Part shown: positions 3,211 through 40,336 of the stretch, in pieces
How positions within the stretch are numbered: the first letter of the stretch is position 1
How the letters are laid out: each line of letters starts with the position of its first letter
Source of the DNA: Candidatus Iainarchaeum sp.
GTDB lineage: Archaea > Micrarchaeota > Micrarchaeia > Anstonellales > Bilamarchaeaceae
Assembly (NCBI GenBank): GCA_028711485.1
Contig: JAQTSF010000001.1
Location: forward strand, 1 to 50,950
Length of the DNA stretch: 50,950 nucleotides
Reading direction: 5' to 3'
The notes under the pieces: model-generated
What the model was told of the DNA's origin: nothing
Database searches by the model: none
What the model saw: only the letters and a program-made list of their open reading frames with translations
Position numbers and translations under genes: made by a program

Positions 3211-4677
3211 TTATTTAAAGGTGGAAAGTTTGGTCTGCCCGAGAGGCTTCTTTTCCCCTACTATAATATACCCATCTTTCTTAAAAGAAATGTTCGAGAG
3301 AATGCTTTTCATTTTTTTCTCCCGGTTGATAGATGCCCAGTAAAAATATTCATCCCTACTTTTCCGTGTAATTAAAATATATACTTCACCTTGAGAGAAA
3401 CGCCCGGTTCTCCCTCTTCTTTGAATTGAACGAATTTCACTAGGAATGGGTTCATAAAAAATTACTACATCTACTGCAGGTATATCTAAACCTTCTTCGC
3501 CTACGGAAGAAGAACATAATATGTTAAATTTTCCTTCTCTGAAATCAGATAGAGTTTCTTCTTGAAGTTTTTTTGTGAAATTATCCTTTTTTCCCATAAA
3601 AACCCGGGAATTAAAATTGTTTTTATTTAGGTGTTTAGATATTAGAGTTATTTGATCACGATATTGTGCAAAAACAATAATTTTCTTATTTTTAAGAGTA
3701 GAAAGAATGGTTGTTAATAGTTCTAATTTTGGATGGGATTGAGAGGGTAGTAGTAAAATTCTTTTTATTAGGGGATTGTTTAGAAGAATTTTAGAAGATT
3801 TTGTGGTTTTTTCACTTAACCGATTGATATATTGTTGAAGAACTTGTAGTGATTGAGTTTCTAGAAGTTCAACCATATGTAATAGATTTAGTAAAAGTGC
3901 GTAGTTCAAAAGAGCAATAAATTTGGTTTTTTTAGAGGATTTTAGTATTCTAACCCTTAAATGCATAAATTGGGTTTTGGATTTGAGAGGTGGAGGAAAA
4001 CCGAAAGCTGCCAGAACTTTTGCGTATTTTGAGATAAGAGACTCCAAATCTCGTTTTATTAACATGTACGTTGGTGGAAGATCTACAAACTGCCAAAAGA
4101 TATTTGTTTGATGTGTATAGGGTTTTACATCAATATCTGTGGTGGTACGAAGTTCTACGTTTTTGATATACAGATTAGAAAGAACCTCTTCTATTCTTTC
4201 TTTTCTTCCGCCGGGAGAAGCAGTTAATGAAACTATTAATGCATTATCTTTTACTTTTTCAGCTATTTTTACATAGGCATAATCCCCAACAGCTCTATGA
4301 CCCTCATCAAATATAATTAAGGAAAATTGAGGGGAAAGTAATTTGTTTTTTAAATCATTGTTAATTGTTTGGGGTGTGGCGACGATAATTTTCTTATTAT
4401 ATTCCTCTTTTCGTTTTTTTGGTGGAAGATCTCCTGTAACTATAGTTACATTAGTTTTTTCACTATCTAAAATTGAGGTAATAGAGTTAAAATGTTGAAG
4501 AACTAGTGGTTTTGTAGGCGCCAAAAATAAGCATCTCCCAGAGGAAATTTTATCCTTGATTAACATAAGTGCAATTAGTGTTTTACCTAGTCCCGTCGGA
4601 AGAACAACTAAAGTATTACCTTTACGTAGAATAGAATCAAAAATATTTTTCTGATATTCACGAGGGGTTAGATTCAT
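3211..4677 (-). CDS. Hef/FANCM-like SF2 helicase (helicase part only, no ERCC4 nuclease domain)
   Basis: ORF track 3211..4746 starts at GTG; ATG at 4677 gives MNLTPREYQ. Motifs LPTGLGKT (Walker A), FDEGH (DExH), SSSVGEEGLDIP, QRRGRTGR. Confidence 0.75.
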   Translation of the reverse strand: MNLTPREYQKNIFDSILRKGNTLVVLPTGLGKTLIALMLIKDKISSGRCLFLAPTKPLVLQHFNSITSILDSEKTNVTIVTGDLPPKKRKEEYNKKIIVATPQTINNDLKNKLLSPQFSLIIFDEGHRAVGDYAYVKIAEKVKDNALIVSLTASPGGRKERIEEVLSNLYIKNVELRTTTDIDVKPYTHQTNIFWQFVDLPPTYMLIKRDLESLISKYAKVLAAFGFPPPLKSKTQFMHLRVRILKSSKKTKFIALLNYALLLNLLHMVELLETQSLQVLQQYINRLSEKTTKSSKILLNNPLIKRILLLPSQSHPKLELLTTILSTLKNKKIIVFAQYRDQITLISKHLNKNNFNSRVFMGKKDNFTKKLQEETLSDFREGKFNILCSSSVGEEGLDIPAVDVVIFYEPIPSEIRSIQRRGRTGRFSQGEVYILITRKSRDEYFYWASINREKKMKSILSNISFKKDGYIIVGEKKPLGQTKLSTFK

Positions 4678-4789
4678 TAATAATAAATATATTGAAAAGT
4701 AATAAAAATAGAGTTTAGAGTTAATTGATAGGGGTTGGTTTTCCACTATTAAGTTTATTTTTTTATTTTTTATTTTTATTGTTTGTTAT

Positions 4790-4805
4790 TGTAACTATAG
4801 TTACA
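4790..4805. promoter_or_regulatory. Perfect 16-bp palindrome TGTAACTATAGTTACA in a divergent intergenic region
   Basis: Read directly. Lies between the Hef-like gene start and the small ORF at 4836. Confidence 0.3.
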
Positions 4806-4835
4806 TTTTTATTATTTATGTTTTATTATTACTTT

Positions 4836-8111: not shown

Positions 8112-8939
8112 TTAGTTTAGTTTTGAAATCGGGTCAATACAGGAATTCCCTCCTTCAAGACACAAAGCTATTTTATCTTCCAACGCTTTACCTACAGAAT
8201 CATAAGAATAACCTACCCAGGTCTCTTCATCTAAGAATGTCATAGGAACTCCACCTGCGGTTTTCCCATATGCAGTTGCCATTACATTGAAGAACTGTGC
8301 ATTGTTCTGGTTTTTCCAAACTTCACAAGATTTTATCAGTAACTCTGGATGTTTACTTTCTAATTCTCTAAGAAGTACTTTTTCATTTGAACAATGTGGA
8401 CAACCATCCCCCCAGAAAAAGTACATTACAACTGTTTTTCCAGAAAGGTCAGTTACTGTACCATCAACACCATTAACACATTCATTTTCTTCGCTTCCAC
8501 CAGAATCATTTACTGGATCATACAATCCAATTTCTTTTAAATATGCATCAATTTCTGCTTCGTATTCTACGAATGGTATTTCAGAAATCAACATCAATGT
8601 TTCATAATCTGTTGTAGTATACACTTTGAGATTTTGTACTCCCACAGTAATATTATGTACGATGATTTCCTCTTTTTCAACAGAATTTACAGAAGCGGTT
8701 TCTTTACTCCCAAATGAAGCTAAGTATAATTTTTCCATCAATGTTTTTACCTTATTTACTTTTGTTTGATCTGGAGTAAAAACATCTTCTCCATTTTCAG
8801 TAGTGTCGGGTTTAACTACCCAACCAAATCCAAATCCAATTAATAATGCCAGAACTCCAACAATAAATAACGGATTTATACTATTCCCCGAGCAACAAGG
8901 CATTTCCTCTACAGTTTCTTTTTCTTTTTTAGAAGCCAT
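8112..8939 (-). CDS. Membrane-anchored thioredoxin-fold protein (CPHC active site)
   Basis: N-terminal TM helix (LFIVGVLALLIGFGFGWVV); C-terminal VVMYFFWGDGCPHCSNEK thioredoxin-like CxxC. Confidence 0.6.
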   Translation of the reverse strand: MASKKEKETVEEMPCCSGNSINPLFIVGVLALLIGFGFGWVVKPDTTENGEDVFTPDQTKVNKVKTLMEKLYLASFGSKETASVNSVEKEEIIVHNITVGVQNLKVYTTTDYETLMLISEIPFVEYEAEIDAYLKEIGLYDPVNDSGGSEENECVNGVDGTVTDLSGKTVVMYFFWGDGCPHCSNEKVLLRELESKHPELLIKSCEVWKNQNNAQFFNVMATAYGKTAGGVPMTFLDEETWVGYSYDSVGKALEDKIALCLEGGNSCIDPISKLN

Positions 8940-9073
8940 ATTTTCACTTCCCAGTGTATATTTTTATAATTACTCTTCTTTTTTCAAACTTCGTTTTATA
9001 ACGTATATAATTACCACTATTTTTAAAAACTTCTATTACTTTATTTTCTATTGCTTTTTATATAATTATAATT

Positions 9074-9238
9074 GATTTATGAGGTTTTCACATGCGTGAT
9101 CCGTTTTAAACGTTGGTACGTTTAAAATATCCCGCATTAAGGTATTAAAGAGGTTTTCACATGCGTGATAATTCGAACTGACAATACAAGTTCAAATATC
9201 CCGCATTAAAGTATTTATGAGGTGTTCACATGCGTGAT
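9074..9238 (+). repeat. Triplicated SD + ATG-CGT-GAT module (43-nt block, period 69 nt) with two divergent 26-nt hairpin-forming inserts and two mini-ORFs
   Basis: Blocks at 9127-9169 and 9196-9238 differ at 4 positions; a partial copy is at 9074-9100. Mini-ORFs are MRDPF* (9092-9109) and MRDNSN* (9161-9181). Hairpin 9104-9127 has a 10-bp perfect stem. Confidence 0.8.
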
Positions 9239-10393
9239 GTAGCTATTATTGGAGTAGGAATGACCTCCTTTGGAGAACATTGGAGTAAAGGATTCAGGGA
9301 ACTTGTAGTGGAAGCAGGAACAAATGCATTAAAAGATGCTGGAATTTCAGGAGAAAAAGTAGATGCTGGTTTTGTAGGAACAATGGCTTCAGGTAAATTA
9401 ATTGGACAAGAACACATTGGTGCTCTAATTGCTGATTTTATGGGTCTTAACCCCATTCCAATTACGAGAGTGGAAGGAGCATGTGCATCAGGCTCTCTTG
9501 CATTAAGACAAGGAATTATGGCAGTAAGTTCAGGGATGCACGATACTGTAGTTGTTGGTGGAGTAGAAAAAATGACGGATTTAGGTACTACTGGAGTCAC
9601 CACCGCATTGGGTGGAGCTGGAGATCAAGAATGGGAGCTTTTTTTTGGTGCAACTTTTCCCGCATTATACGCCCTTATGGCAAGAAGACATATGATTGAT
9701 TTTGGAACAACTGAAGAAATGCTTGCTTCTGTTTCAGTTAAAAATCACAAACACGGTTCAATGAATCCCAATGCTCAATTCCAAAACCAAATAACCCTCC
9801 AAGATGTTTTAAATTCCAAAATGGTTGCAAATCCATTAAAAATTCTCGACTGTTCACCTATCTCTGACGGAGCTGCAGCATTAGTTTTAGTTCCTTTAGA
9901 AAAAGCACATAGTTATACAAAAAAACCAGTAAGAATTTTAGCATCTGCACAAGCAAGTGATACTATCTCTTTACATTCCAGAGAGAGTCTTACTGGAGTA
10001 AAATCAGCTCAAATAGCTTCTCAGAATGCTTATAAATATGCTAAACTTTCACCAAAAAATATTGACGTTGCAGAGGTTCATGATTGCTTCTCAATAGCAG
10101 AAATAATGGCAATAGAAGACTTAGGATTTTTTAAGAAAGGAGAAGGCGGCATTGCTTCATTAGAAGGGAGAACTTCTCTTGGAGGAGAAATTCCAATTAA
10201 TACCTCTGGTGGATTAAAAGCATGCGGTCACCCTGTGGGTGCAACAGGGGTAAAACAATTAGTGGAATTATATTGGCAGCTTAAAGGTGATGCAGGAAAC
10301 AGACAGGTAAAAGATGCAAACATTGGACTTTCCCATAATGTTGGGGGGAGTGGAGCAACAACAGTTGTTCATATTGTAAAAGGTGAGTGGTAA
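9230..10393 (+). CDS. Archaeal thiolase (acetyl-CoA C-acetyltransferase family)
   Basis: MRDVAIIGVGMTSFG, EGACASGSLA (catalytic Cys), VHDCFS, GGLKACGHPVGATG. Confidence 0.85.
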   Translation: MRDVAIIGVGMTSFGEHWSKGFRELVVEAGTNALKDAGISGEKVDAGFVGTMASGKLIGQEHIGALIADFMGLNPIPITRVEGACASGSLALRQGIMAVSSGMHDTVVVGGVEKMTDLGTTGVTTALGGAGDQEWELFFGATFPALYALMARRHMIDFGTTEEMLASVSVKNHKHGSMNPNAQFQNQITLQDVLNSKMVANPLKILDCSPISDGAAALVLVPLEKAHSYTKKPVRILASAQASDTISLHSRESLTGVKSAQIASQNAYKYAKLSPKNIDVAEVHDCFSIAEIMAIEDLGFFKKGEGGIASLEGRTSLGGEIPINTSGGLKACGHPVGATGVKQLVELYWQLKGDAGNRQVKDANIGLSHNVGGSGATTVVHIVKGEW

Positions 10394-10394
10394 T

Positions 10395-10796
10395 ATGAAA
10401 AGTTCTATTTCATTAACTTGGAGAAGGATTCCAGAGAGATATAGATTAGAAGGAAACGAGTGTATTAATTGCAAAACTGCATTTTTTCCTCCTAGGAATA
10501 TCTGCCCGAAATGCAGGAGAAAAGGAATTTTAAAACCAAAAAAATTTTCAGGAAAAGGGAGCATTTATTCTTATACTGAAATAGATATTCCACCTGAAGG
10601 TTTTGAAAATCAAGCTCCATATGTCCTTGCAATAATCGACTTGGTTGAGGGATCTAAAATTCTCGGTCAGATCGTTGATGCTCGTTTAGATGAGGTTCGT
10701 GTTGGTAGCAAAGTAGAACATGTTTTTAGGATGATACAAAAAGACGACCCCGAAGGGCTAATCCATTATGGGTTTAAATTTAAATTAGTTAAATAG
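10395..10796 (+). CDS. DUF35 zinc-ribbon/OB-fold protein (thiolase partner)
   Basis: ORF track 10383 starts at GTG; ATG at 10395 is preceded by AGGTGA. CINCKTAFFPPRNICPKC zinc ribbon followed by an OB-like C-terminus; overlaps or abuts the thiolase gene. Confidence 0.75.
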   Translation: MKSSISLTWRRIPERYRLEGNECINCKTAFFPPRNICPKCRRKGILKPKKFSGKGSIYSYTEIDIPPEGFENQAPYVLAIIDLVEGSKILGQIVDARLDEVRVGSKVEHVFRMIQKDDPEGLIHYGFKFKLVK

Positions 10797-17448: not shown

Positions 17449-17602
17449 CATAGCCTTTTAGTTTCTAAGTATAAACTAGTTTGAAAAGGCTATGTCCGAC
17501 AGAACGTCGCAACGTTCTGTGGACCATTGAAACTTGGCGAAGCAAGTTTCAATATTTGACGGGTAACGTCCCGTCAAACCATAGAACGACACGTCGTTCT
17601 AT
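17449..17602. other. Back-to-back array of five different perfect hairpins (candidate structured RNA or DNA cruciform cluster)
   Basis: A 17449-17494 (11 bp). B 17495-17523 (12 bp plus one bulge). C 17526-17553 (11 bp). D 17555-17578 (9 bp). E 17581-17602 (9 bp). Linkers are 0-2 nt and all stem pairs are Watson-Crick. Confidence 0.85.
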
Positions 17603-17659
17603 TGGTAACCCAAAACCAGCTTCTCTTCTAACTAATAAATAATAGATCAAAAAGATGGA

Positions 17660-17760
17660 TGGACTCGCCCAGATTTGAACTGGGGACCTTCACCATGTCA
17701 AGGTGACGTCATACCGTTATCCGCTTTGAAATTAATTTCAAAGCTCTAGACCACGAGTCC
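17660..17760 (-). tRNA. tRNA-Val (anticodon GAC) with a ~28-nt non-canonical intron in the D-loop
   Basis: Folded by hand. Acceptor GGACTCG/CGAGTCC, anticodon arm TCACC-TTGACAT-GGTGA, T arm CCCAG-TTCAAAT-CTGGG. Removing 17716-17743 gives a 73-nt tRNA with D-loop AGAGGGTA. Confidence 0.8.
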
Positions 17761-17844
17761 TAAAACAAGATAACTCTTAATTATTCTCCAATTTCTTTTT
17801 AATTCTTATCCCTTAATATAATTCTCAAACTTTTTGGTGATAAA

Positions 17845-22813: not shown

Positions 22814-22977
22814 TTTCTTCTTCTTTCAGATTTATTTTTTTATACCTTTTAATTTATTTTATATCAGACGCTGTTGACCTCATCACCAACCTTTTGACTC
22901 ATTACATACACACGGCAAAACGTTGACGAAAAACCATGCGATATATCTTTGTCAGGTTATCAGAGGTTGTTCATGTC

Positions 22978-23160
22978 ATCACAATGAGCGACCCAAGAGG
23001 AACAATCAACAACTTAAGCCTTTACTCGTTAGTGAATTGTGATTTTTGAACGTTAGTTCAAAAGTATCACAATGAGCGACCAAGGATTGACAAGCATTCC
23101 AGAGTCTTTACTCATAAGCGAATTGTGAACTGTAAGAATCAGTTCACCTAATCACAAGAT
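22978..23160 (+). repeat. Two ~88-nt units (box1 - variable 24-26 nt - box2 - variable hairpin) plus a degenerate third box1
   Basis: Box1 ATCACAATGAGCGACC is at 22978-22993 and 23066-23081. Box2 CTTTACTCNTNAGNGAATTGTGA is at 23020-23042 and 23106-23128. Hairpins are at 23044-23063 (8 bp) and 23125-23147 (8 bp). ATCACAAgat occurs at 23151. Confidence 0.8.
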
Positions 23161-30207: not shown

Positions 30208-31305
30208 ATGAGACCCGATTTATTCAAACAAGTTCTTTCTGATAAGAATAAAATTATTATTGCACAAATAGCTCCAGCAGTTCAAGTAAGTATTGGAGAG
30301 TTATTTGGTTATGAACCGGGTACTCCACTATATAAAAAATTAATTTTTGCTCTTAAGAAATTAGGAGTAAAATATGTTTTTGATACCTCTTTTGGAGCAG
30401 ATATTTGTGTAGTGGAAGAAAGCAAAGAATTCGAATCAAGAATCAAGCAGGGGGAATTCCCAATAATCAATTCTTGTTGCCCTGGAACTGTAAGTTTCCT
30501 TGAACATGCATACCCTGATTTAGTAGGTAATATGGCAACAGTAAAAAGTCCAATGGAAGTTACTGGAGCACTTATAAAATCTTATTTTGCAGAAAAAATG
30601 AACATTCTCCCAGATAATATTTTTTCAATAGCAATTATGCCCTGTGTTATAAAAAAAGCAGAGGCGCTGAGGCCGGAATTAAGGGTAAAAGGAAAGCTTA
30701 TGGTGGATGGGGTAATAACTACAAAAGAAATATCAGAAATTCTTAAAGAAAACAACATAGAACTTTCAAAGTGTGAGGATATGGACTTTGACTCTTTAAT
30801 GGGAACTGCAAGTGGTGCAGGTAAAATATTTGGTTCTTCTGGAGGGGTTGGAGAAGCAGCACTTAGAAATTATGCTTATATAAACAATCTTCCTTTAGAA
30901 AAAATAGATAAAAAAAATTTAAGAGGTGAGGAAGGAATACGAGAGATAACTTATAGCTCTGGAAAAATAGAATTTAAAATGCTTGTAATCAACTCCTTAA
31001 GAAATGCAAGTATATTGTTGAACGATAAAGAAAAACTAAAAAAATATCATTTTGTTGAAATAATGGCTTGTTTAGGTGGTTGTGTTGGAGGAGCAGGACA
31101 GCCGCAATCTACAAAAGAAAATCTTGAAAAAAGAAGAAAAGGACTATACCAAATTGATGAAGGATTAAAATTAAAAGTTCCTTCACAAAATCCAGAAATA
31201 CAAAAATTATATGAAAATTATCTGGGTTCCCCAATGAGCAGAAAGGCAAAACAACTTCTCCATACTGGATTTGAGGAAACATGTGTTGATTGTTATCAAA
31301 ATTAA
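30208..31305 (+). CDS. [FeFe]-hydrogenase H-cluster domain protein (catalytic domain only, 365 aa)
   Basis: L1-like NSCCPG, L2 MPCVIKKAE, L3 EIMACLGGCVGGAGQP. No N-terminal ferredoxin-like Cys clusters. Confidence 0.8.
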   Translation: MRPDLFKQVLSDKNKIIIAQIAPAVQVSIGELFGYEPGTPLYKKLIFALKKLGVKYVFDTSFGADICVVEESKEFESRIKQGEFPIINSCCPGTVSFLEHAYPDLVGNMATVKSPMEVTGALIKSYFAEKMNILPDNIFSIAIMPCVIKKAEALRPELRVKGKLMVDGVITTKEISEILKENNIELSKCEDMDFDSLMGTASGAGKIFGSSGGVGEAALRNYAYINNLPLEKIDKKNLRGEEGIREITYSSGKIEFKMLVINSLRNASILLNDKEKLKKYHFVEIMACLGGCVGGAGQPQSTKENLEKRRKGLYQIDEGLKLKVPSQNPEIQKLYENYLGSPMSRKAKQLLHTGFEETCVDCYQN

Positions 31306-34153: not shown

Positions 34154-34660
34154 ATGGAGATGATTAAACCAACACCTTCAGGATTTTTTATGAAGAAATA
34201 CTGGCATTTATTAGTTTTTCTAATATTTATAACCATTCTTAATATTCTATCTCTTTTAGGATCATTTAGTTTGGGCTGGATTTTATTTATTATTTTTGGT
34301 ATTTCAGTACTTTCTGTTTTTTCAGGGTGGGTTCATTCTAAACTTCATTCAGAAGCAACTTTATTATCAATAACTGATGATGAACTAGTACATCAAACAG
34401 GCATACTTAGTATGCAAAAGAAAAAAATACCAGTCCATAAAATAACAGATTCTTCTATAAGAAGAAGTTTTTACGATAAAATACTTAATCTGTGTTCAAT
34501 TAACTTCAGCACGAGCGGAAGTACAGGTTATGAAATTTCTATTATTGCAATGCCTTACAATGAGGCTGAATTATTCCATGACGAACTCCACAGATTAATA
34601 AGAACTAGAATGAAAAGACCTGTAGAAAAGAATTCTCCTGAAAATATTCTTGAAGAGTGA
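34154..34660 (+). CDS. Membrane protein with bacterial PH (bPH_2/YdbS-like) domain
   Basis: Two TM helices then ITDDELVHQTGILSMQKKKIPVHKITDSSIRRSFYDKILNLCSINFST. Confidence 0.6.
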   Translation: MEMIKPTPSGFFMKKYWHLLVFLIFITILNILSLLGSFSLGWILFIIFGISVLSVFSGWVHSKLHSEATLLSITDDELVHQTGILSMQKKKIPVHKITDSSIRRSFYDKILNLCSINFSTSGSTGYEISIIAMPYNEAELFHDELHRLIRTRMKRPVEKNSPENILEE

Positions 34661-34664
34661 TGTT

Positions 34665-35204
34665 ATGGATTTCCAAAATATATTTGTAATAAAACATCAA
34701 TATGGACAAAAGGAGATGCATGAACTTGCACTTATAAGTATACTAATATTCTTAATTCCTCTTATATTCGGCCATCTTAATACTCTGCCAATGCAATTTT
34801 TTGTAGGAACAACAGTTAATTTTTTATTAGTCTTATCTGCATTTTACCTCTCAGGGTGGAAAAATCTTTTCCCAATACTTCTTCCAAGCATTGCAGCTTA
34901 TTTAACCGGAATTTTATTTGGTGCAAATACTTCATTTTTATTATTTTTTATTCCATTTATCTGGCTCGGAAATTTTATTTTTGTTTATTTAAACAAGAAA
35001 ATCTCTGTTGGAGAAAATAAACCTTATCTAGGGACAATTTATTCTTCAATTGTAAAATCCTTTATTTTGTTCATTCCTGCAGTTATAATTGTATATCTTA
35101 AAATAGTTCCAGAATTATTTCTTATAGCAATGGGACCAATGCAGCTTATAACTGCTCTTTCGGGAGGTTTCCTGGCACTAGTTTTCAATAATTTTAGAAA
35201 ATAA
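34665..35204 (+). CDS. Multi-pass membrane protein (ECF S-component-like size and topology, unassigned)
   Basis: ORF track 34650 starts at TTG; ATG at 34665. Five to six hydrophobic helices and no diagnostic motif. Confidence 0.45.
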   Translation: MDFQNIFVIKHQYGQKEMHELALISILIFLIPLIFGHLNTLPMQFFVGTTVNFLLVLSAFYLSGWKNLFPILLPSIAAYLTGILFGANTSFLLFFIPFIWLGNFIFVYLNKKISVGENKPYLGTIYSSIVKSFILFIPAVIIVYLKIVPELFLIAMGPMQLITALSGGFLALVFNNFRK

Positions 35205-35271
35205 CCCGCACTAAGATTAAAAATAAAAAGTTTAATTCTTTAGATAAATTGAATTGAAAAAATAAGCATAA

Positions 35272-35601
35272 TCAAACCAATGGTTTTGATGGTAAAGTAG
35301 GAAGATTATATTTCATTCTGTAATTATCCACTATCTTCACAGTTCTTATTTCAAATTTATTCAATTGTTTTAATCCCATCCTTAAATATAAACCAAAATC
35401 AGCAAGGTTATTTGCCCCATCTTCTATTAGTTTTTTTACAACATCTTCAATTTGCTGTTTTCCACCATTATCTGTTCCAAGAACACTTAAGGCTATCGCA
35501 ACTTGATTTACAAAATGAGTTTTGTCGCTCTCGCTCATCCTGCTCCATACTTCTATTACTCTCGCTTTACTTTTAGGATCCAAATCTTTAAAATTAACCA
35601 T
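35272..35601 (-). CDS. Hypothetical protein (109 aa)
   Basis: ORF with non-repetitive composition, 3 nt downstream of the 58/61-aa ORF (operon-like). Confidence 0.45.
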   Translation of the reverse strand: MVNFKDLDPKSKARVIEVWSRMSESDKTHFVNQVAIALSVLGTDNGGKQQIEDVVKKLIEDGANNLADFGLYLRMGLKQLNKFEIRTVKIVDNYRMKYNLPTLPSKPLV

Positions 35602-35604
35602 GAG

Positions 35605-35781
35605 TCAACCCCACGTTACTCTTTTTCTATCAAAATTTTTAGCCAGGTCAGCAGCGTTTTTCATTGCTAACACACTTACAACAATACCTGGAATAATCTG
35701 AATTGCTTGAGGAATAGGAACCCCTCCTAACTTACCTTTTAGAATATGTTTTTCTAATTCAAGATATGCTCTTCCGACCAT
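35605..35781 (-). CDS. Hypothetical small protein (58 aa from ATG; 61 from TTG at 35790)
   Basis: ORF track 35605..35790. No recognisable motif. Confidence 0.35.
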   Translation of the reverse strand: MVGRAYLELEKHILKGKLGGVPIPQAIQIIPGIVVSVLAMKNAADLAKNFDRKRVTWG

Positions 35782-35820
35782 TTGAATCAAATATATTACT
35801 CATAACATCTTTATATACTT

Positions 35821-35880
35821 TTCTCACCCTAGGCAAGGGAAGGACCCCTCGCCTAATGGCTCACCCACTCCCCCCAAGTC
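35821..35880 (-). ncRNA. GC-rich island, candidate structured RNA or leader (unclassified)
   Basis: Sharp GC rise in an AT-rich spacer. The minus-strand hairpin GGCGAGGGG-ucc u-UCCCUUGCC (35832-35853) has 9 pairs including two G-U, which would be A-C mismatches on the plus strand. It is flanked by direct GGGUGAG repeats (35823-35829 and 35860-35866). Confidence 0.3.
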
Positions 35881-35970
35881 GATATATTAAAGGATTTTAT
35901 TATTCATAATATTCTATTACAAATCCCTACCATAGACACAATATCTAGAGAACTAACAAACAATTCTTTT

Positions 35971-36237
35971 CTATTCTATTTTTATATCAAAAGAAGGTTC
36001 CACTCTCATCCATTGTCCATTAATATACTGCCACAATTCCTTTGTTAAGGAGTCATAAACCAAACTTGTTTTAGCGGCTATTTCCCTTGATCTGTCAATT
36101 TCTATGAATACAAATCTTCTTGTCCATGACATTTCATCAGCAAACGGATTTCTTTCAACAATATACACCTTTTTCTTCTCTTTTTTCTTTTGGTCACACC
36201 ATTCCTTTATTCTTTTTATTTCCTCTTCATTCGCCAT
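35971..36237 (-). CDS. Hypothetical protein (88 aa)
   Basis: ORF immediately downstream of the DRG GTPase gene. No motif recognised. Confidence 0.4.
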   Translation of the reverse strand: MANEEEIKRIKEWCDQKKKEKKKVYIVERNPFADEMSWTRRFVFIEIDRSREIAAKTSLVYDSLTKELWQYINGQWMRVEPSFDIKIE

Positions 36238-36245
36238 ATGGACAC

Positions 36246-37325: not shown

Positions 37326-37858
37326 TTTCTCAACTTTATTTTCTCTAATTTTTCTTTTAAATCCTTTTCATCCGAAGCAATAATTACAAAACCATGGTTC
37401 TTTATTTTAACAATCCAGCTTTTTTCAATTAATTCTCCAACTTCTTTTGCAATTTCAATACTTCCATACTCATATTCATTTGTTTCAAATTCAAATCGTT
37501 TCAATAGTAATTTATCTTCATGAAAATGCAACACTATCCGTGCATCTTTTCGTCTATTGTATATCTCGTTGTGCATTAAACTTTCAGAGGAAGGTGTTCC
37601 ACCTGATGCATAAACTTTTTCATCCTCAATTTTTTTAACAAATACAACATCCTCTTTTTTTAAATCAGTCATTCTACTTCCACTTTTTTTTATTAAAAAA
37701 CCATTTTCCATTCTTAAACTAAAATTTCCTTCATTTTTATTAACCTTAACATACCCTTTAATTATTTTGTCAATAAAGAGCATTCTCTCTAGATCTGTAT
37801 TTGCAACACTATTTTTTATTTCAATTACTTTGAATTTTACTCCGGTATATTTTTCCAT
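37322..37858 (-). CDS. Class II aldolase/adducin-domain protein (MtnB/FucA-like)
   Basis: GNFSLR..GFLIKKSGSRMTDLKKEDVVFV...PSSESLMHNEIYNRRKDARIVLHFH. Confidence 0.7.
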   Translation of the reverse strand: MEKYTGVKFKVIEIKNSVANTDLERMLFIDKIIKGYVKVNKNEGNFSLRMENGFLIKKSGSRMTDLKKEDVVFVKKIEDEKVYASGGTPSSESLMHNEIYNRRKDARIVLHFHEDKLLLKRFEFETNEYEYGSIEIAKEVGELIEKSWIVKIKNHGFVIIASDEKDLKEKLEKIKLRK

Positions 37859-38820
37859 ATCTTCCCAATCTCTTTAGGTTTTTTATGTATTCCATACTCA
37901 GTAATATATGCAGTTACATATTTTGAAGGAGTAATATCAAATGCAGGATTAAGTGCTTTTGTATTTTTTCCATATACTTTTTTTCCAAGAATCTCAAGAA
38001 CTTCTTTCTCACTTCTTTCCTCTATTTTTATTTTTTTCCCATTTTTTGTTTTACTATCAAATGTTGAAATCGGAAAACACACATAGAATGGTATTTTATT
38101 CTCCTTTGCAATAACTGCTAAGGAATAAGTTCCTATCTTATTTGCAAAATCCCCATTTTTTAATACTCTATCCGCTCCCACAAAAACACAATCTACTTTT
38201 CCATTTTCCATGAAGAAACCAGCTGAAGAATCCACAATTACTCTATGTTTAATTCTATTTTTTCCCAATTCCCAACTTGTAAGTGCTCCCTGTATTCTTG
38301 GTCTTGTTTCATTTACATATACAAATATCTTTTTTCCATTCTCTTTTGCATAAACAACTGCCCCCAAAGCAGTTCCTTCACCAGCAGTTGCAATCATTCC
38401 AGCATTACAATGAAGGAGGATATTGCTATTACTTTTTATTAAAGAAGCTCCATTTTCACTTATTTTTTTTGTTTTTTCAATAATTTTTTTATGCCATCTT
38501 TTTGCAGAATCAATTGATTTTTTTCCTTTTTTATTCTCTCTAATCATAAATTCAATTGCATTATTCAAATCTACAGCAGTAGGCCTTGCTTTTCTTAAAA
38601 ATTCACAATCCTTTACAAAATTTTTTGATATTGAAAGTCCATAAGCAGCAGCAACACCTATTGCAGGAGCTCCACGAACAACCATATTCTTAATTGCGTT
38701 AAAAACTTGTTTTATGCTCTTACACTCAATATATTTTTCTGAATAAGGCAATTTTCTTTGATCGAGCAGAAAGATTTTTCCATTTCTAAAGTCCACAGAC
38801 CGCATGTATAAAATATTCAT
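37837..38820 (-). CDS. eIF-2B alpha/beta/delta-like isomerase (ribose-1,5-bisphosphate isomerase or MtnA family)
   Basis: LLDQRKLP, MVVRGAPAIGVAAAYG, GADRVLKNGDFANKIGTY, NPAFDITP. Confidence 0.8.
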   Translation of the reverse strand: MNILYMRSVDFRNGKIFLLDQRKLPYSEKYIECKSIKQVFNAIKNMVVRGAPAIGVAAAYGLSISKNFVKDCEFLRKARPTAVDLNNAIEFMIRENKKGKKSIDSAKRWHKKIIEKTKKISENGASLIKSNSNILLHCNAGMIATAGEGTALGAVVYAKENGKKIFVYVNETRPRIQGALTSWELGKNRIKHRVIVDSSAGFFMENGKVDCVFVGADRVLKNGDFANKIGTYSLAVIAKENKIPFYVCFPISTFDSKTKNGKKIKIEERSEKEVLEILGKKVYGKNTKALNPAFDITPSKYVTAYITEYGIHKKPKEIGKIWKNIPE

Positions 38821-38853
38821 TCATCTCTTTAAATTCTTTTCAATTTTGTGGAT

Positions 38854-40266
38854 TTAGAATATAACTCCCGCTCTTCCTTTTTTGAGTGCTTCTAAAGTCA
38901 TTTTTTTGTAATTTTTCCTTTCATACTCTATTTCTTTGTATATCTCTTTTGGATCAGAATATCCCCATATTTTCAAAGCTTGTGAGAGTTCTGGATGTGT
39001 TTTTGCATACTCTGGAGCAGCTACCCCTTTCATTACTGCTTCCACTGCTTGTTTCATTGAAATTGCTCCTTTTACAGTTCCTCCAGAATGCCCATGAACT
39101 CCTGCCCCCGCTTGTATATTTGTATTCTTTCCGTGAAGTGCTATAATAGCATCCACTTTTCCTGCATCCACTCCACCAGAAGCAATGCTTAAAATAGGTT
39201 TTATATTTTTTTCAAATTCCATTTCAAGAGAGCCAAAATACAATTTTTCTTTTAAACTAAAATTCTCAGCAAGTTCATGCAGTCTTTTTATTGCAAGAGG
39301 AGAACCTTCCATTTTTCCAACTCCTGTTCCAACATGCAATTGATCTATTCCAAGAAGTCTGTAAAATTTCTCATAAACCTGGAAATTTACTCCAAAACTC
39401 CCTCTGTTTGCAGCTGCAAATCCTGCCCTATGCCCATGGATTGCAAATTTATATTTTCTTGTAATTTCCAGAATTTCCTCAACCGTACTTAATCCTAAAA
39501 TATAAATGTCCAACATTACAATTACTTTTTTATTCAATCCCATTTCATTTAGGTAATCCACTCTTTCAATCATTCTTGATTGTTTATCTGTAATTGATGA
39601 AGAATAAATATGATGCTGTCCAGTTTCTCCTTCTGCTTTTTCAATTGCGTTTACAACTTCATTCAATCGTTCTTTCCATTTGCAGAATTTCTGATCAACT
39701 AAATTTTCATCATCTTTTACTAAATCCAATCCACCCAAATAAGATTTATATGCTACATTTGCCCATTCCTTTGGTGTAAGCCCTACTTTTGGTTTTACAA
39801 TTGTTCCCATATGCGGTCTTTTTGTTTTTTCAGTACCGACCAGTTTTCTTATTCCCCCCAAACCTAGTGCTGCTCCTTTGAATCTTTTTTGATAATTTTT
39901 AGGAATTGAAATATCAAAAACATATAGTTCTTCTAATTCTTTTAACCCGAATACATTTCCTAATACTGATGCCTGAAATTGAGACAAGTTTTTCACATCA
40001 AAATGCTCTATAGGATATGCAATTTTTATGAATCCGCTTTTTGCACTAACCTTTCCAATCCAAAAAACTCTTGCTCTATATTTTTCCCATACTACATTAT
40101 TCATTGTTCTTAATCTTGTCCAGGAGCCTACACTGCTTTCTGCAGCCAAAGCCTCAGCAGTTTTTTCTATGTTCATTTGACTTTTTGTCCAAAATAGAAC
40201 TACAAAATCATTTTTTGGATCTGGTTTATATTTCAAATCAGTATAACTATATCCTCCATATGCCAT
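38854..40266 (-). CDS. rbcL: RuBisCO large subunit, form III-like
   Basis: ORF track 40293 starts at TTG; ATG 40266 is preceded by AGGTG. GTIVKPKVGL, GGLDLVKDDENL, IHGHRAG, LHVGTGVGKMEGS, ASGGVDAGK, GAGVHGHSGG. Confidence 0.85.
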   Translation of the reverse strand: MAYGGYSYTDLKYKPDPKNDFVVLFWTKSQMNIEKTAEALAAESSVGSWTRLRTMNNVVWEKYRARVFWIGKVSAKSGFIKIAYPIEHFDVKNLSQFQASVLGNVFGLKELEELYVFDISIPKNYQKRFKGAALGLGGIRKLVGTEKTKRPHMGTIVKPKVGLTPKEWANVAYKSYLGGLDLVKDDENLVDQKFCKWKERLNEVVNAIEKAEGETGQHHIYSSSITDKQSRMIERVDYLNEMGLNKKVIVMLDIYILGLSTVEEILEITRKYKFAIHGHRAGFAAANRGSFGVNFQVYEKFYRLLGIDQLHVGTGVGKMEGSPLAIKRLHELAENFSLKEKLYFGSLEMEFEKNIKPILSIASGGVDAGKVDAIIALHGKNTNIQAGAGVHGHSGGTVKGAISMKQAVEAVMKGVAAPEYAKTHPELSQALKIWGYSDPKEIYKEIEYERKNYKKMTLEALKKGRAGVIF

Positions 40267-40336
40267 AAATACACCTGAATCTGTTCTCAGCAAGGATATT
40301 TATAAAGTTTTTTGAAATTAATCTATAAGTGATAAA

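Follow-up and report, generated by a model that had tools for sequence, protein, structure and literature searches.

The start region of a Micrarchaeota thiolase gene is present in three tandem copies around unrelated, foldable centres

The DNA analyzed here comprises positions 1 to 50,950 of contig JAQTSF010000001.1 (assembly GCA_028711485.1, Candidatus Iainarchaeum sp.), a stretch of a Micrarchaeota (DPANN) genome with approximately 31% GC that is referred to below as the window. Our subject is the intergenic region in front of a thiolase gene, in which the start region of that gene occurs three times. The thiolase (387 aa, starting MRDV) forms an operon with a DUF35/ChsH2-type OB-fold protein, in a gene order that is kept in relatives, and the gene upstream of the array (8112-8939) is divergent. 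The features of the locus, in window coordinates, are as follows.

9055-9069, forward strand: AT-rich TATA-like box TTTTTATATAATTAT, with core TTTATATA at 9057-9064, upstream of the partial first copy
9074-9100, forward strand: copy 0 (B0), partial, with the Shine-Dalgarno (SD) sequence GAGGTT and ATGCGTGAT only, without the A (promoter) part
9092-9109, forward strand: pseudo-start 1 with the mini open reading frame (ORF) MRDPF*, from the sequence and its six-frame translation
9092-9137, forward strand: H1, a 46-nt near-palindrome with outer stem ATGCG.GAT/ATC.CGCAT
9101-9121, forward strand: centre 1, 21 nt, without counterpart in unit 2, giving the left arm and loop of H1
9122-9169, forward strand: copy 1 (A1 + B1), a full copy of the putative core promoter and translation-initiation region, with TATA-like TTTAAAATA (9121-9129), the C-rich ATCCCGC, SD GAGGTT (9150-9155) and ATGCGTGAT (9161-9169)
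9161-9181, forward strand: pseudo-start 2 with the mini-ORF MRDNSN*
9161-9206, forward strand: H2, 46 nt, ATGCG.GATA.TT.GAACT / AGTTCAA.TATC.CGCAT with a 9-nt loop
9170-9190, forward strand: centre 2, 21 nt, unrelated to centre 1, giving the left arm and loop of H2
9191-9238, forward strand: copy 2 (A2 + B2), the predicted working thiolase promoter-start module, with TATA-like TTCAAATAT (9191-9199), ATCCCGC, GAGGTG (9219-9224) as the only full SD, and the ATG at 9230
9230-10393, forward strand: thiolase (Pfam Thiolase_N and Thiolase_C_1; Micrarchaeota homologues)
10383-10796, forward strand: DUF35/ChsH2-type protein (Pfam zf-ChsH2 and OB_ChsH2_C)

The three-copy array is real, reproducible and well delimited. 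A repeat finder returned one direct-repeat family with members at 9053-9100 (63%), 9122-9169 (the reference) and 9191-9238 (90%), and the spacing of the three in-register copies is exactly 69 + 69 nt, so that the full extra copy lies 69 nt and the partial copy 138 nt upstream of the working one. The 20-mer GAGGTKTTCACATGCGTGAT is found three times and ATATCCCGCATTAARGTATT twice at the array, where shuffled sequences are expected to give 0.00 and 0.02 occurrences, and a scan of the whole window identified the array as its sole local direct repeat of at least 24 nt with at most 2 mismatches. When the region is divided into units U0 (9032-9100), U1 (9101-9169) and U2 (9170-9238), U1 and U2 agree in 43 of the 48 positions of their 3' parts and in only 2 of the 21 of their 5' centres (Fisher p=1.6e-10). 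U0 has only its last 27 nt in common with the other two units (24/27 and 25/27 identity). A prediction made earlier from the sequence (the original prediction) had described 43-nt blocks at 9127-9169 and 9196-9238 with 4 mismatches, the 27-nt copy at 9074-9100 and the mini-ORFs ATG CGT GAT CCG TTT TAA (9092-9109) and ATG CGT GAT AAT TCG AAC TGA (9161-9181), all of which we recovered. Each pseudo-start retains an intact SD, spacer and ATG, and the mini-ORF peptides have no common sequence beyond MRD. A protein-coding repeat was rejected, as stops occur in all six frames across 9040-9245.

An independent Logan assembly, of run SRR22315508, contains the whole array on one contig, with 100% identity over 8900-9300. 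Between the copies no exact repeat is longer than 20 nt, and each has its own substitutions and unique centres. With such centres and no more than 20 shared exact bases, collapse or expansion during assembly is very unlikely.

To place the repeated block, the 55 nt upstream of the thiolase were listed for approximately 85 relatives and a subset of these was aligned. The A part (GTTTAAAAT ATCCCGC ATT...) lines up in register with the promoter in front of the thiolase in five relatives (L003, L005, L006, L009, and L016), and several Micrarchaeota have a layout in which a TTTTAAA box is followed by a C-rich element (GTCCCCG, GCCCCGC, or GCCCCCA) and then by CAATA. The distance from the 9-nt TATA segment to the ATG is 32 nt in both U1 and L003, and the C-rich element is found at about -31 to -25. 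In the block itself, a TTTAAA-type TATA box approximately 40 nt before the ATG precedes the C-rich element. Because of the in-register alignment and the equal spacing, the 48-nt block is, judged by comparison with these relatives, the entire native core promoter together with the SD, the ATG and two codons. The analysis thereby identifies a conserved thiolase promoter layout for Micrarchaeota, with a TTTAAA box approximately 40 nt before the ATG and a C-rich element behind it. The original prediction had seen that the SD and start were repeated, but had not recognized the A block as the native TATA box and C-rich element. At all three variable positions B2 has the state of the L001 orthologue (TATTTAT, AGGTG), and B0 and B1 have in common the derived, weaker SD GAGGTT. 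The start sequence ATGCGTGAT is the native thiolase start, and is present in L001 as well.

Upstream of the partial copy, TTTATATA lies at -35 to -28 from the ATG at 9092 and is the best-scoring intergenic site by a TATA matrix that was trained on the window's own upstream regions, a weak matrix that is of supporting use only. Other SD-led genes in the window have their TATA boxes at -25 to -33, a geometry that the box at 9055-9069 matches. Archaeal TATA boxes are centred approximately 26-27 nt upstream of the transcription start. This distance would place transcription starts approximately 10 nt before each ATG, at the SD, and the box at 9057-9064 is predicted to direct a start near 9087.

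Both junctions between the copies can fold. The inner stem of H1 is a perfect 10-11 bp helix (TTTTAAACGT/ACGTTTAAAA, loop TGGT), and the repeat finder confirmed the 10-bp perfect palindrome at 9104-9113/9118-9127 that had been described before. H1 folds with -16.9 kcal/mol (z -4.5), and H2, which had been described as the weaker hairpin, proved longer and stronger than that description, with -12.7 kcal/mol (z -4.7); none of 200 shuffles was equally stable in either case. A sliding fold scan of both strands ranked H1 approximately 10th and H2 approximately 16th among non-overlapping 46-nt windows. Each hairpin opens exactly at a pseudo-start ATG and closes in ATCCCGCAT. The real start (9230-9275) is unstructured (z +0.5), and the whole 187-nt region as RNA folds no better than shuffles (z -0.27). 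In both hairpins a variable left arm faces a conserved, complementary right arm (TTMAAATATCCCGCAT). In H1, 9104-9113 is the perfect reverse complement of 9118-9127; in H2 the complementarity of the left arm is imperfect. H1 and H2 lie 23 nt apart, with no cassette between them.

The 3' arm of H2 at 9182-9193 (CAATACAAGTTC) is also complementary at 11 of 12 positions to 9299-9310 in thiolase codons 24-27 (GAACTTGTAGTG), and minimum-energy folds of long transcripts adopt this pairing in place of H2. A match of this type within 500 nt has a chance of about 0.3, by our rough estimate only. Partition-function modelling of three candidate transcripts predicted unpaired probabilities of 0.09 for the ATG at 9092, 0.17-0.61 for the ATG at 9161, and 0.25-0.31 for the ATG at 9230, the last being alike in all three. 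The variation at 9161 is due to the competition of H2 with the long-range pairing.

A donor template for the centres or the A block was sought in the surrounding 2.3 kb; the best candidates, at 8992-9004 (p ~0.05) and 9658-9667 (p ~0.025), fail across 20 tests. Several known forms were considered for the hairpins and rejected. Inversion of the centres in a flip/flop manner was rejected from their reverse complements. For a C/D box small RNA we looked for a C box (RUGAUGA) and a D box (CUGA) with approximately 12-nt guide spacing near a terminal stem, and found only the near-C boxes GTGATCC and GTGATAA, one CTGA at a distance of 6 nt, and no second pair of boxes. Inspection of the sequence also led us to reject a K-turn, a bulge-helix-bulge motif and a hairpin-plus-T-run terminator.

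The best homologues of the thiolase are all from Micrarchaeota metagenome-assembled genomes, with at most 84% amino acid identity, and no relative above 84% was found in a collection of 5.8 billion proteins. None of the approximately 85 relatives has more than one start region, and no enrichment of strong hairpins was found upstream of the thiolase in 80 relatives. In one 76%-identical relative (L019, approximately 2920-2985) two successive perfect hairpins lie directly upstream of the thiolase SD (GTTGAGAAGC-acaa-GCTTCTCAAC and GTGGACGA-atcg-TCGTCCAC), in a sequence unrelated to H1 and H2. Subtracting 138 nt from the intergenic spacer leaves 152 nt, a length similar to the approximately 170-190 nt of the syntenic relatives L086 and L001. 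Rfam gave no match, neither at gathering thresholds nor at E<=1. The 20-mers of the block were not found in IMG/VR and gave a single chance match in JGI metagenomes, within a 695-aa ORF of bacterial origin; a blastn search of phages and plasmids with 9050-9240 gave no match, and the window holds no other copy of the blocks or centres. At 35198-35217, where the ORF at 34650-35204 has its stop codon, AAAATAACCCGCACTAAGAT agrees with the A block (AAAATATCCCGCATTAAGGT) in 17 of 20 positions, which may be chance. In 549 kb of relatives' loci a short-word blastn returned noise only, and a scan for GTGAT...ATCMC hairpins returned 0. The single start region in relatives, together with the empty database searches, indicates that the array is young and lineage-restricted.

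None of the three explanations that had been offered for the array is positively supported by these results. Against a small structured RNA family stand the empty Rfam result and the lack of another copy of the block in the window, in IMG/VR and JGI metagenomes, and among phages and plasmids. Against a conserved control by upstream ORFs and hairpins stand the single start regions and the lack of upstream hairpin excess in the relatives. The third, that the array is the scar of a rebuilding of gene 5' ends, came closest: it stands as far as a local duplication of the 5' end is concerned, the block being the gene's own promoter and start, but a dedicated machinery is not encoded in the window. 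Among all ORFs of at least 120 aa in the 51-kb window, a Pfam scan detected neither an integrase or transposase nor a Cas protein or reverse transcriptase.

The reading that we hold, with slightly better than even confidence, is a lineage-specific local amplification of the 5' control module of the thiolase, followed by hairpin-centred turnover. A slipped-strand or unequal duplication of the promoter-start module would come first, after which the centres would be rewritten by hairpin-templated (template-switch) mutation. As template switching writes one arm from the other, stems would be made or repaired in one step, leaving centres that are unrelated and yet foldable. Such events are documented to make perfect stems and multi-base 'compensatory' changes at once, with no need for selection on structure (PMC8794818). 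The inner stem of H1, perfect over 10-11 bp, fits this, and so does the complementarity of the left arms to the conserved right arms. The outer stem would exist because the C-rich ATCCCGCAT of the promoter by chance complements the start ATGCGTGAT of the preceding copy. The promoter is also prone to duplication, as a relative with an 83% identical thiolase (L084, JGI 3300028843) has its own independent, perfect 24-nt tandem duplication (TTTCATAATTAAATAGTTATTAAG twice, at approximately 1430-1500) directly before the SD of the same gene.

In operation, transcription would proceed from up to three phased TATA boxes, with starts near 9087, 9151 and 9220. The long transcripts would bear two decoy starts, with their ATGs in the bases of H1 and H2 and ORFs that end after 5-6 codons. 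The thiolase would be translated from 9230, as only the third site combines the full SD GAGGTG with an unstructured start. Most likely the array arose by mutation and alters expression modestly at best; it is probably neutral, or else a variant with mildly changed expression, and most likely not a conserved riboregulator.

Several points weigh against this account. Plain tandem duplication predicts identical centres, yet these agree at 2 of 21 positions; the original prediction was right that near-identical flanks around unrelated, foldable centres are not the outcome of one simple tandem duplication. Divergence that is non-uniform along the repeat unit requires a process beyond duplication, and no series of events has been reconstructed that combines centres of 2/21 identity with flanks of 43/48 and an exact 69-nt period. 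The search of the surrounding 2.3 kb gave no nearby donor above chance for either centre, and the lack of an A block in copy 0 calls for at least one further event. A second array of the same design, with H1-like and H2-like hairpins in the same order, lies 14 kb away, which hints at a shared process or element and not at independent accidents. Promoter use and start positions are deduced solely from geometry, with a weak TATA matrix. In the models the real start is about equally accessible in all three transcripts, and, with H2 competing against the long-range pairing, the idea that the decoy starts are locked is not robust for the ATG at 9161.

Should the amplification account be correct, the locus would be a clear natural example of a compact DPANN genome amplifying a promoter-start module, and of junction hairpins arising without selection on RNA structure. 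It would also be a caution that 'compensatory' hairpin variation between two paralogous copies does not prove function.

Of the other explanations, a functional cis-regulatory leader survives best, although we regard it as unlikely. The thiolase-DUF35 mRNA would then start mainly from the upstream TATA box (approximately 9087) and carry a 140-nt leader with two mini-ORFs and alternative pairings, in which ATCCCGCAT (9198-9206) pairs either with the upstream ATGCGTGAT, forming H2 and leaving the real start free, or with 9230-9238, which is thereby sequestered; the leader would act in the manner of leader-peptide translational attenuation. The intact SD, spacer and ATG at each pseudo-start agree with this, as do the rank of H1 and H2 among the strongest structures of the window and the position of the strongest canonical TATA box upstream of copy 0. 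Moreover, minimum-energy folds of long transcripts contain the pairing of A2 that sequesters the real start, closed by the 11/12 pairing of 9182-9193 with 9299-9310. However, the sequestering stem alone is weak (-5.1 kcal/mol, vs. -12.7 kcal/mol for H2), and the unpaired probability of the ATG at 9230 is about the same for every assumed promoter. The arrangement is conserved in none of the approximately 85 relatives, the 187-nt region does not fold better than its shuffles, and the mini-ORF peptides are unlike after MRD.

The next explanation concerns a second, likewise lineage-specific intergenic tandem array, which is possibly related to the first.

22882-23160, forward strand: second intergenic tandem array, with ATCAC units starting at 22882, 22978, 23066, and 23152
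23035-23074, forward strand: Ha, junction hairpin of the second array
23121-23158, forward strand: Hb, junction hairpin of the second array

An exact match to a motif of the thiolase array had been reported at 22963-22975, where the sequence instead reads GAGGTTGTTCATG and only resembles GAGGTKTTCAYATG. That this site heads another tandem array, built like the first, had escaped notice. The periods of this array are 96, 88, and 86 nt, and its blocks are bounded by 8-9-nt inverted repeats (ATCACAAT...ATTGTGAT) with unrelated 22-23-nt hairpin centres between them. Ha reads GTGAT TTTTGAACGTTAGT... where H1 reads GTGAT ccg TTTTAAACGTTGGT..., and Hb contains GAACTG-N8-AGTTCA, a motif that is found in H2 as well. 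A small ORF is present in two of the units (MSDPRGTINNLSLYSLVNCDF and MSDQGLTSIPESLLISEL), with a strong hairpin behind each (23035-23074 and 23125-23147), and the region folds with z -4.0. In two relatives, L089 and L090, the array is absent in front of the orthologous HEAT-repeat gene, and the Logan contig of SRR22315508 breaks within it at 23105. H1 and H2 have no common pairing register, and MAFFT gave no structural alignment of the four hairpins of both arrays.

Both arrays might have been made by a genome-specific process or small element that inserts 21-23-nt hairpin-forming segments while duplicating the flanking block, either as a mechanism of repeat duplication plus insert or as a tiny palindromic mobile or templated element; we consider this quite improbable. 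What speaks for it is the shared design of conserved blocks, 8-9-nt terminal inverted repeats and unrelated 21-23-nt hairpin centres, the likeness of H1 to Ha (GTGAT..TTTTRAACGTTRGT) and of H2 to Hb (GAACTG-N8-AGTTCA) in the same order, the exactly kept period and centre length, and the lack of either array in relatives. In an unbiased tile scan with a 138-nt query the second array was among the top 2 of 1000 tiles (z ~4.7), but an AT-rich, probably spurious match scored equally high. The motif patterns were drawn up after both loci had been seen, and GTGAT is a common SD-like motif in this genome; in unbiased scans H1-Ha scored no higher than a non-hairpin coding match, and the likeness of H2 to Hb alone was not above background. 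There is no third copy in the window and none in the 549 kb of relatives' loci, no target-site duplications flank the centres, and the window lacks genes for an integrase, a transposase, Cas1, or a reverse transcriptase. In addition, ATGCGTGAT is the native thiolase start and not the end of an element.

The second array keeps a shared duplication-plus-insert process or a tiny element family alive at low probability. In its specific form, such a process or tiny non-autonomous element would duplicate a short block and deposit a hairpin insert of fixed length (21-23 nt) at the junction, and would have acted at 9074-9238 and 22882-23160, which we hold to be a long shot; that its signature would be the two hairpin types TTTTRAACGTT... 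and GAACTG-N8-AGTTCA seems to us just as doubtful. It would resemble the repeat duplication of CRISPR spacer integration or long-stagger transposition, but on the promoter-start modules of ordinary genes. Should the second array be mechanistically linked to the first, the locus would gain in importance, as a sign of an undescribed process of duplication plus insert in an uncultured lineage of archaea.

An assembly artefact, in which strain variants were concatenated or a repeat was expanded, is very improbable. The source is a metagenome assembly, and the break of the Logan contig at 23105 indicates that repeats trouble assemblers here; against this, the second assembler gave a 100% identical contig across the thiolase array, and the distinct substitutions, unique centres and longest exact repeat of 20 nt are not those of one sequence collapsed or expanded. 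A mini CRISPR array or integron attC-like sites, to which the superficial repeat-spacer-repeat layout (48-nt repeat, 21-nt spacer) and the hairpins with conserved bases and variable tops bear a likeness, can be regarded as essentially refuted: what recurs is the thiolase's own promoter and start codon, in no more than 2.5 copies of 90% identity, with spacers that are palindromic and shorter than any known CRISPR spacer class; the 51 kb contain no cas, no intI and no cassettes, and the blocks are unmatched in viral collections.

The remaining ORFs of at least 120 aa in the window encode housekeeping functions, among them riboflavin synthesis, purine and pyrimidine synthesis, S-adenosylmethionine synthetase and similar functions, and include a form III-like RuBisCO and a ribose-1,5-bisphosphate isomerase-like gene. 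The RuBisCO large-subunit gene adjoins this IF-2B-family gene (37837-40293, minus strand), a pairing that is typical of the archaeal AMP/nucleotide salvage route. A [FeFe]-hydrogenase-like gene is located at 30208-31305.

Four further regions of the window were noted. At 17640-17770 on the minus strand lies a tRNA-like sequence with an acceptor stem GGACTCG...CGAGTCC, a T arm GTCCCCAGTTCAAATCTGGGC and an apparent hairpin insertion in the D region (TTTGAAATTAATTTCAAAGC); it was detected neither by ARAGORN (with and without intron mode) nor by Rfam, and is probably an intron-bearing or otherwise atypical DPANN tRNA. Nearby (17479-17620, forward strand), four successive near-perfect hairpins occupy a 440-nt ORF-free gap, with stems such as GTCCGACAGAACGT/ACGTTCTGTGGAC, TTGAAACTTG/CAAGTTTCAA, TGACGGG/CCCGTCA, and ATAGAACGAC/GTCGTTCTAT. 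They have no Rfam match, though they are among the most stable local folds of the window, and may represent an unannotated non-coding RNA. The strongest 46-nt hairpin of the window (GCCAUUAGGCGAGGGGUCCUUCCCUUGCCUAGGGUGA, 35815-35860, minus strand, -23.3 kcal/mol) lies within 35205-36245, a 1-kb stretch without an ORF of at least 120 aa. Finally, the 16-nt perfect palindrome TGTAACTATAGTTACA is present at 4435-4450 and 4790-4805, 355 nt apart, with one copy just upstream of and one inside a Hef/DEAD-type helicase gene (3211-4746, minus strand), and TGGTGGAAGATCT, another motif, recurs at about this distance. The pair may be an operator pair; a duplication with a 348-355-nt repeat at 4070-4808 was rejected, as only two short motifs are repeated.

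Among known systems, CRISPR arrays and attC sites are like the thiolase array in their regular periodicity of repeat and variable segment, but here the repeat is the promoter-start module of a housekeeping gene. Where a CRISPR array has at least three near-identical repeats and unique spacers of approximately 26-72 nt, the thiolase array has two full repeats and one partial repeat with 21-nt palindromic spacers, in a 51-kb window without cas genes; as for attC sites, the window has no integrase and no cassette lies between the hairpins. With miniature inverted-repeat transposable elements (MITEs) and palindrome-associated transposable elements (PATEs) the array has in common blocks that are bounded by 8-9-nt inverted repeats, hairpin segments, and a second locus of similar design. 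It differs from them in that one of its 'terminal repeats' is the native start codon region and in that the data searched hold no target-site duplications, dispersed copies or transposase; the searched collections contain no other copy of block or centre, and the resemblance at 23035-23158 is distant.

Attenuation of the ermC/cat type and archaeal 5' untranslated regions with upstream ORFs offer another likeness, as the thiolase leader has short SD-led ORFs upstream of the gene and its ATCCCGCAT has two identical sequences available for pairing, the real start being one of them. In contrast to these systems, the mini-ORFs encode no dedicated leader peptides but are truncated copies of the thiolase's own start, without conservation and without a clear energetic switch, and with single start regions in the relatives, no hairpin enrichment and no Rfam match the array does not group with conserved cis-regulatory RNAs.

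Closer are quasipalindrome template-switch mutations (the Ripley/Lovett model; Monttinen and Loytynoja, 2022, PMC8794818), which are like the array in their near-perfect inverted repeats and multi-nucleotide changes that preserve pairing. Unlike the described cases, the array has neither an outgroup sequence for the switch points nor a donor for the loop-proximal parts, which makes the likeness a mechanistic analogy. From a plain duplication of a 5' region the array is set apart by its replaced 21-nt centres beside 48-nt blocks that are 90% identical, its exact 69-nt period, its partial first copy and its non-uniform divergence. With duplications of 5' regions by slipped-strand events or unequal recombination it nevertheless shares the head-to-tail, in-register copies of promoter, ribosome-binding site and start, confined to one lineage, and a unit that is homologous to the single-copy region of the relatives.

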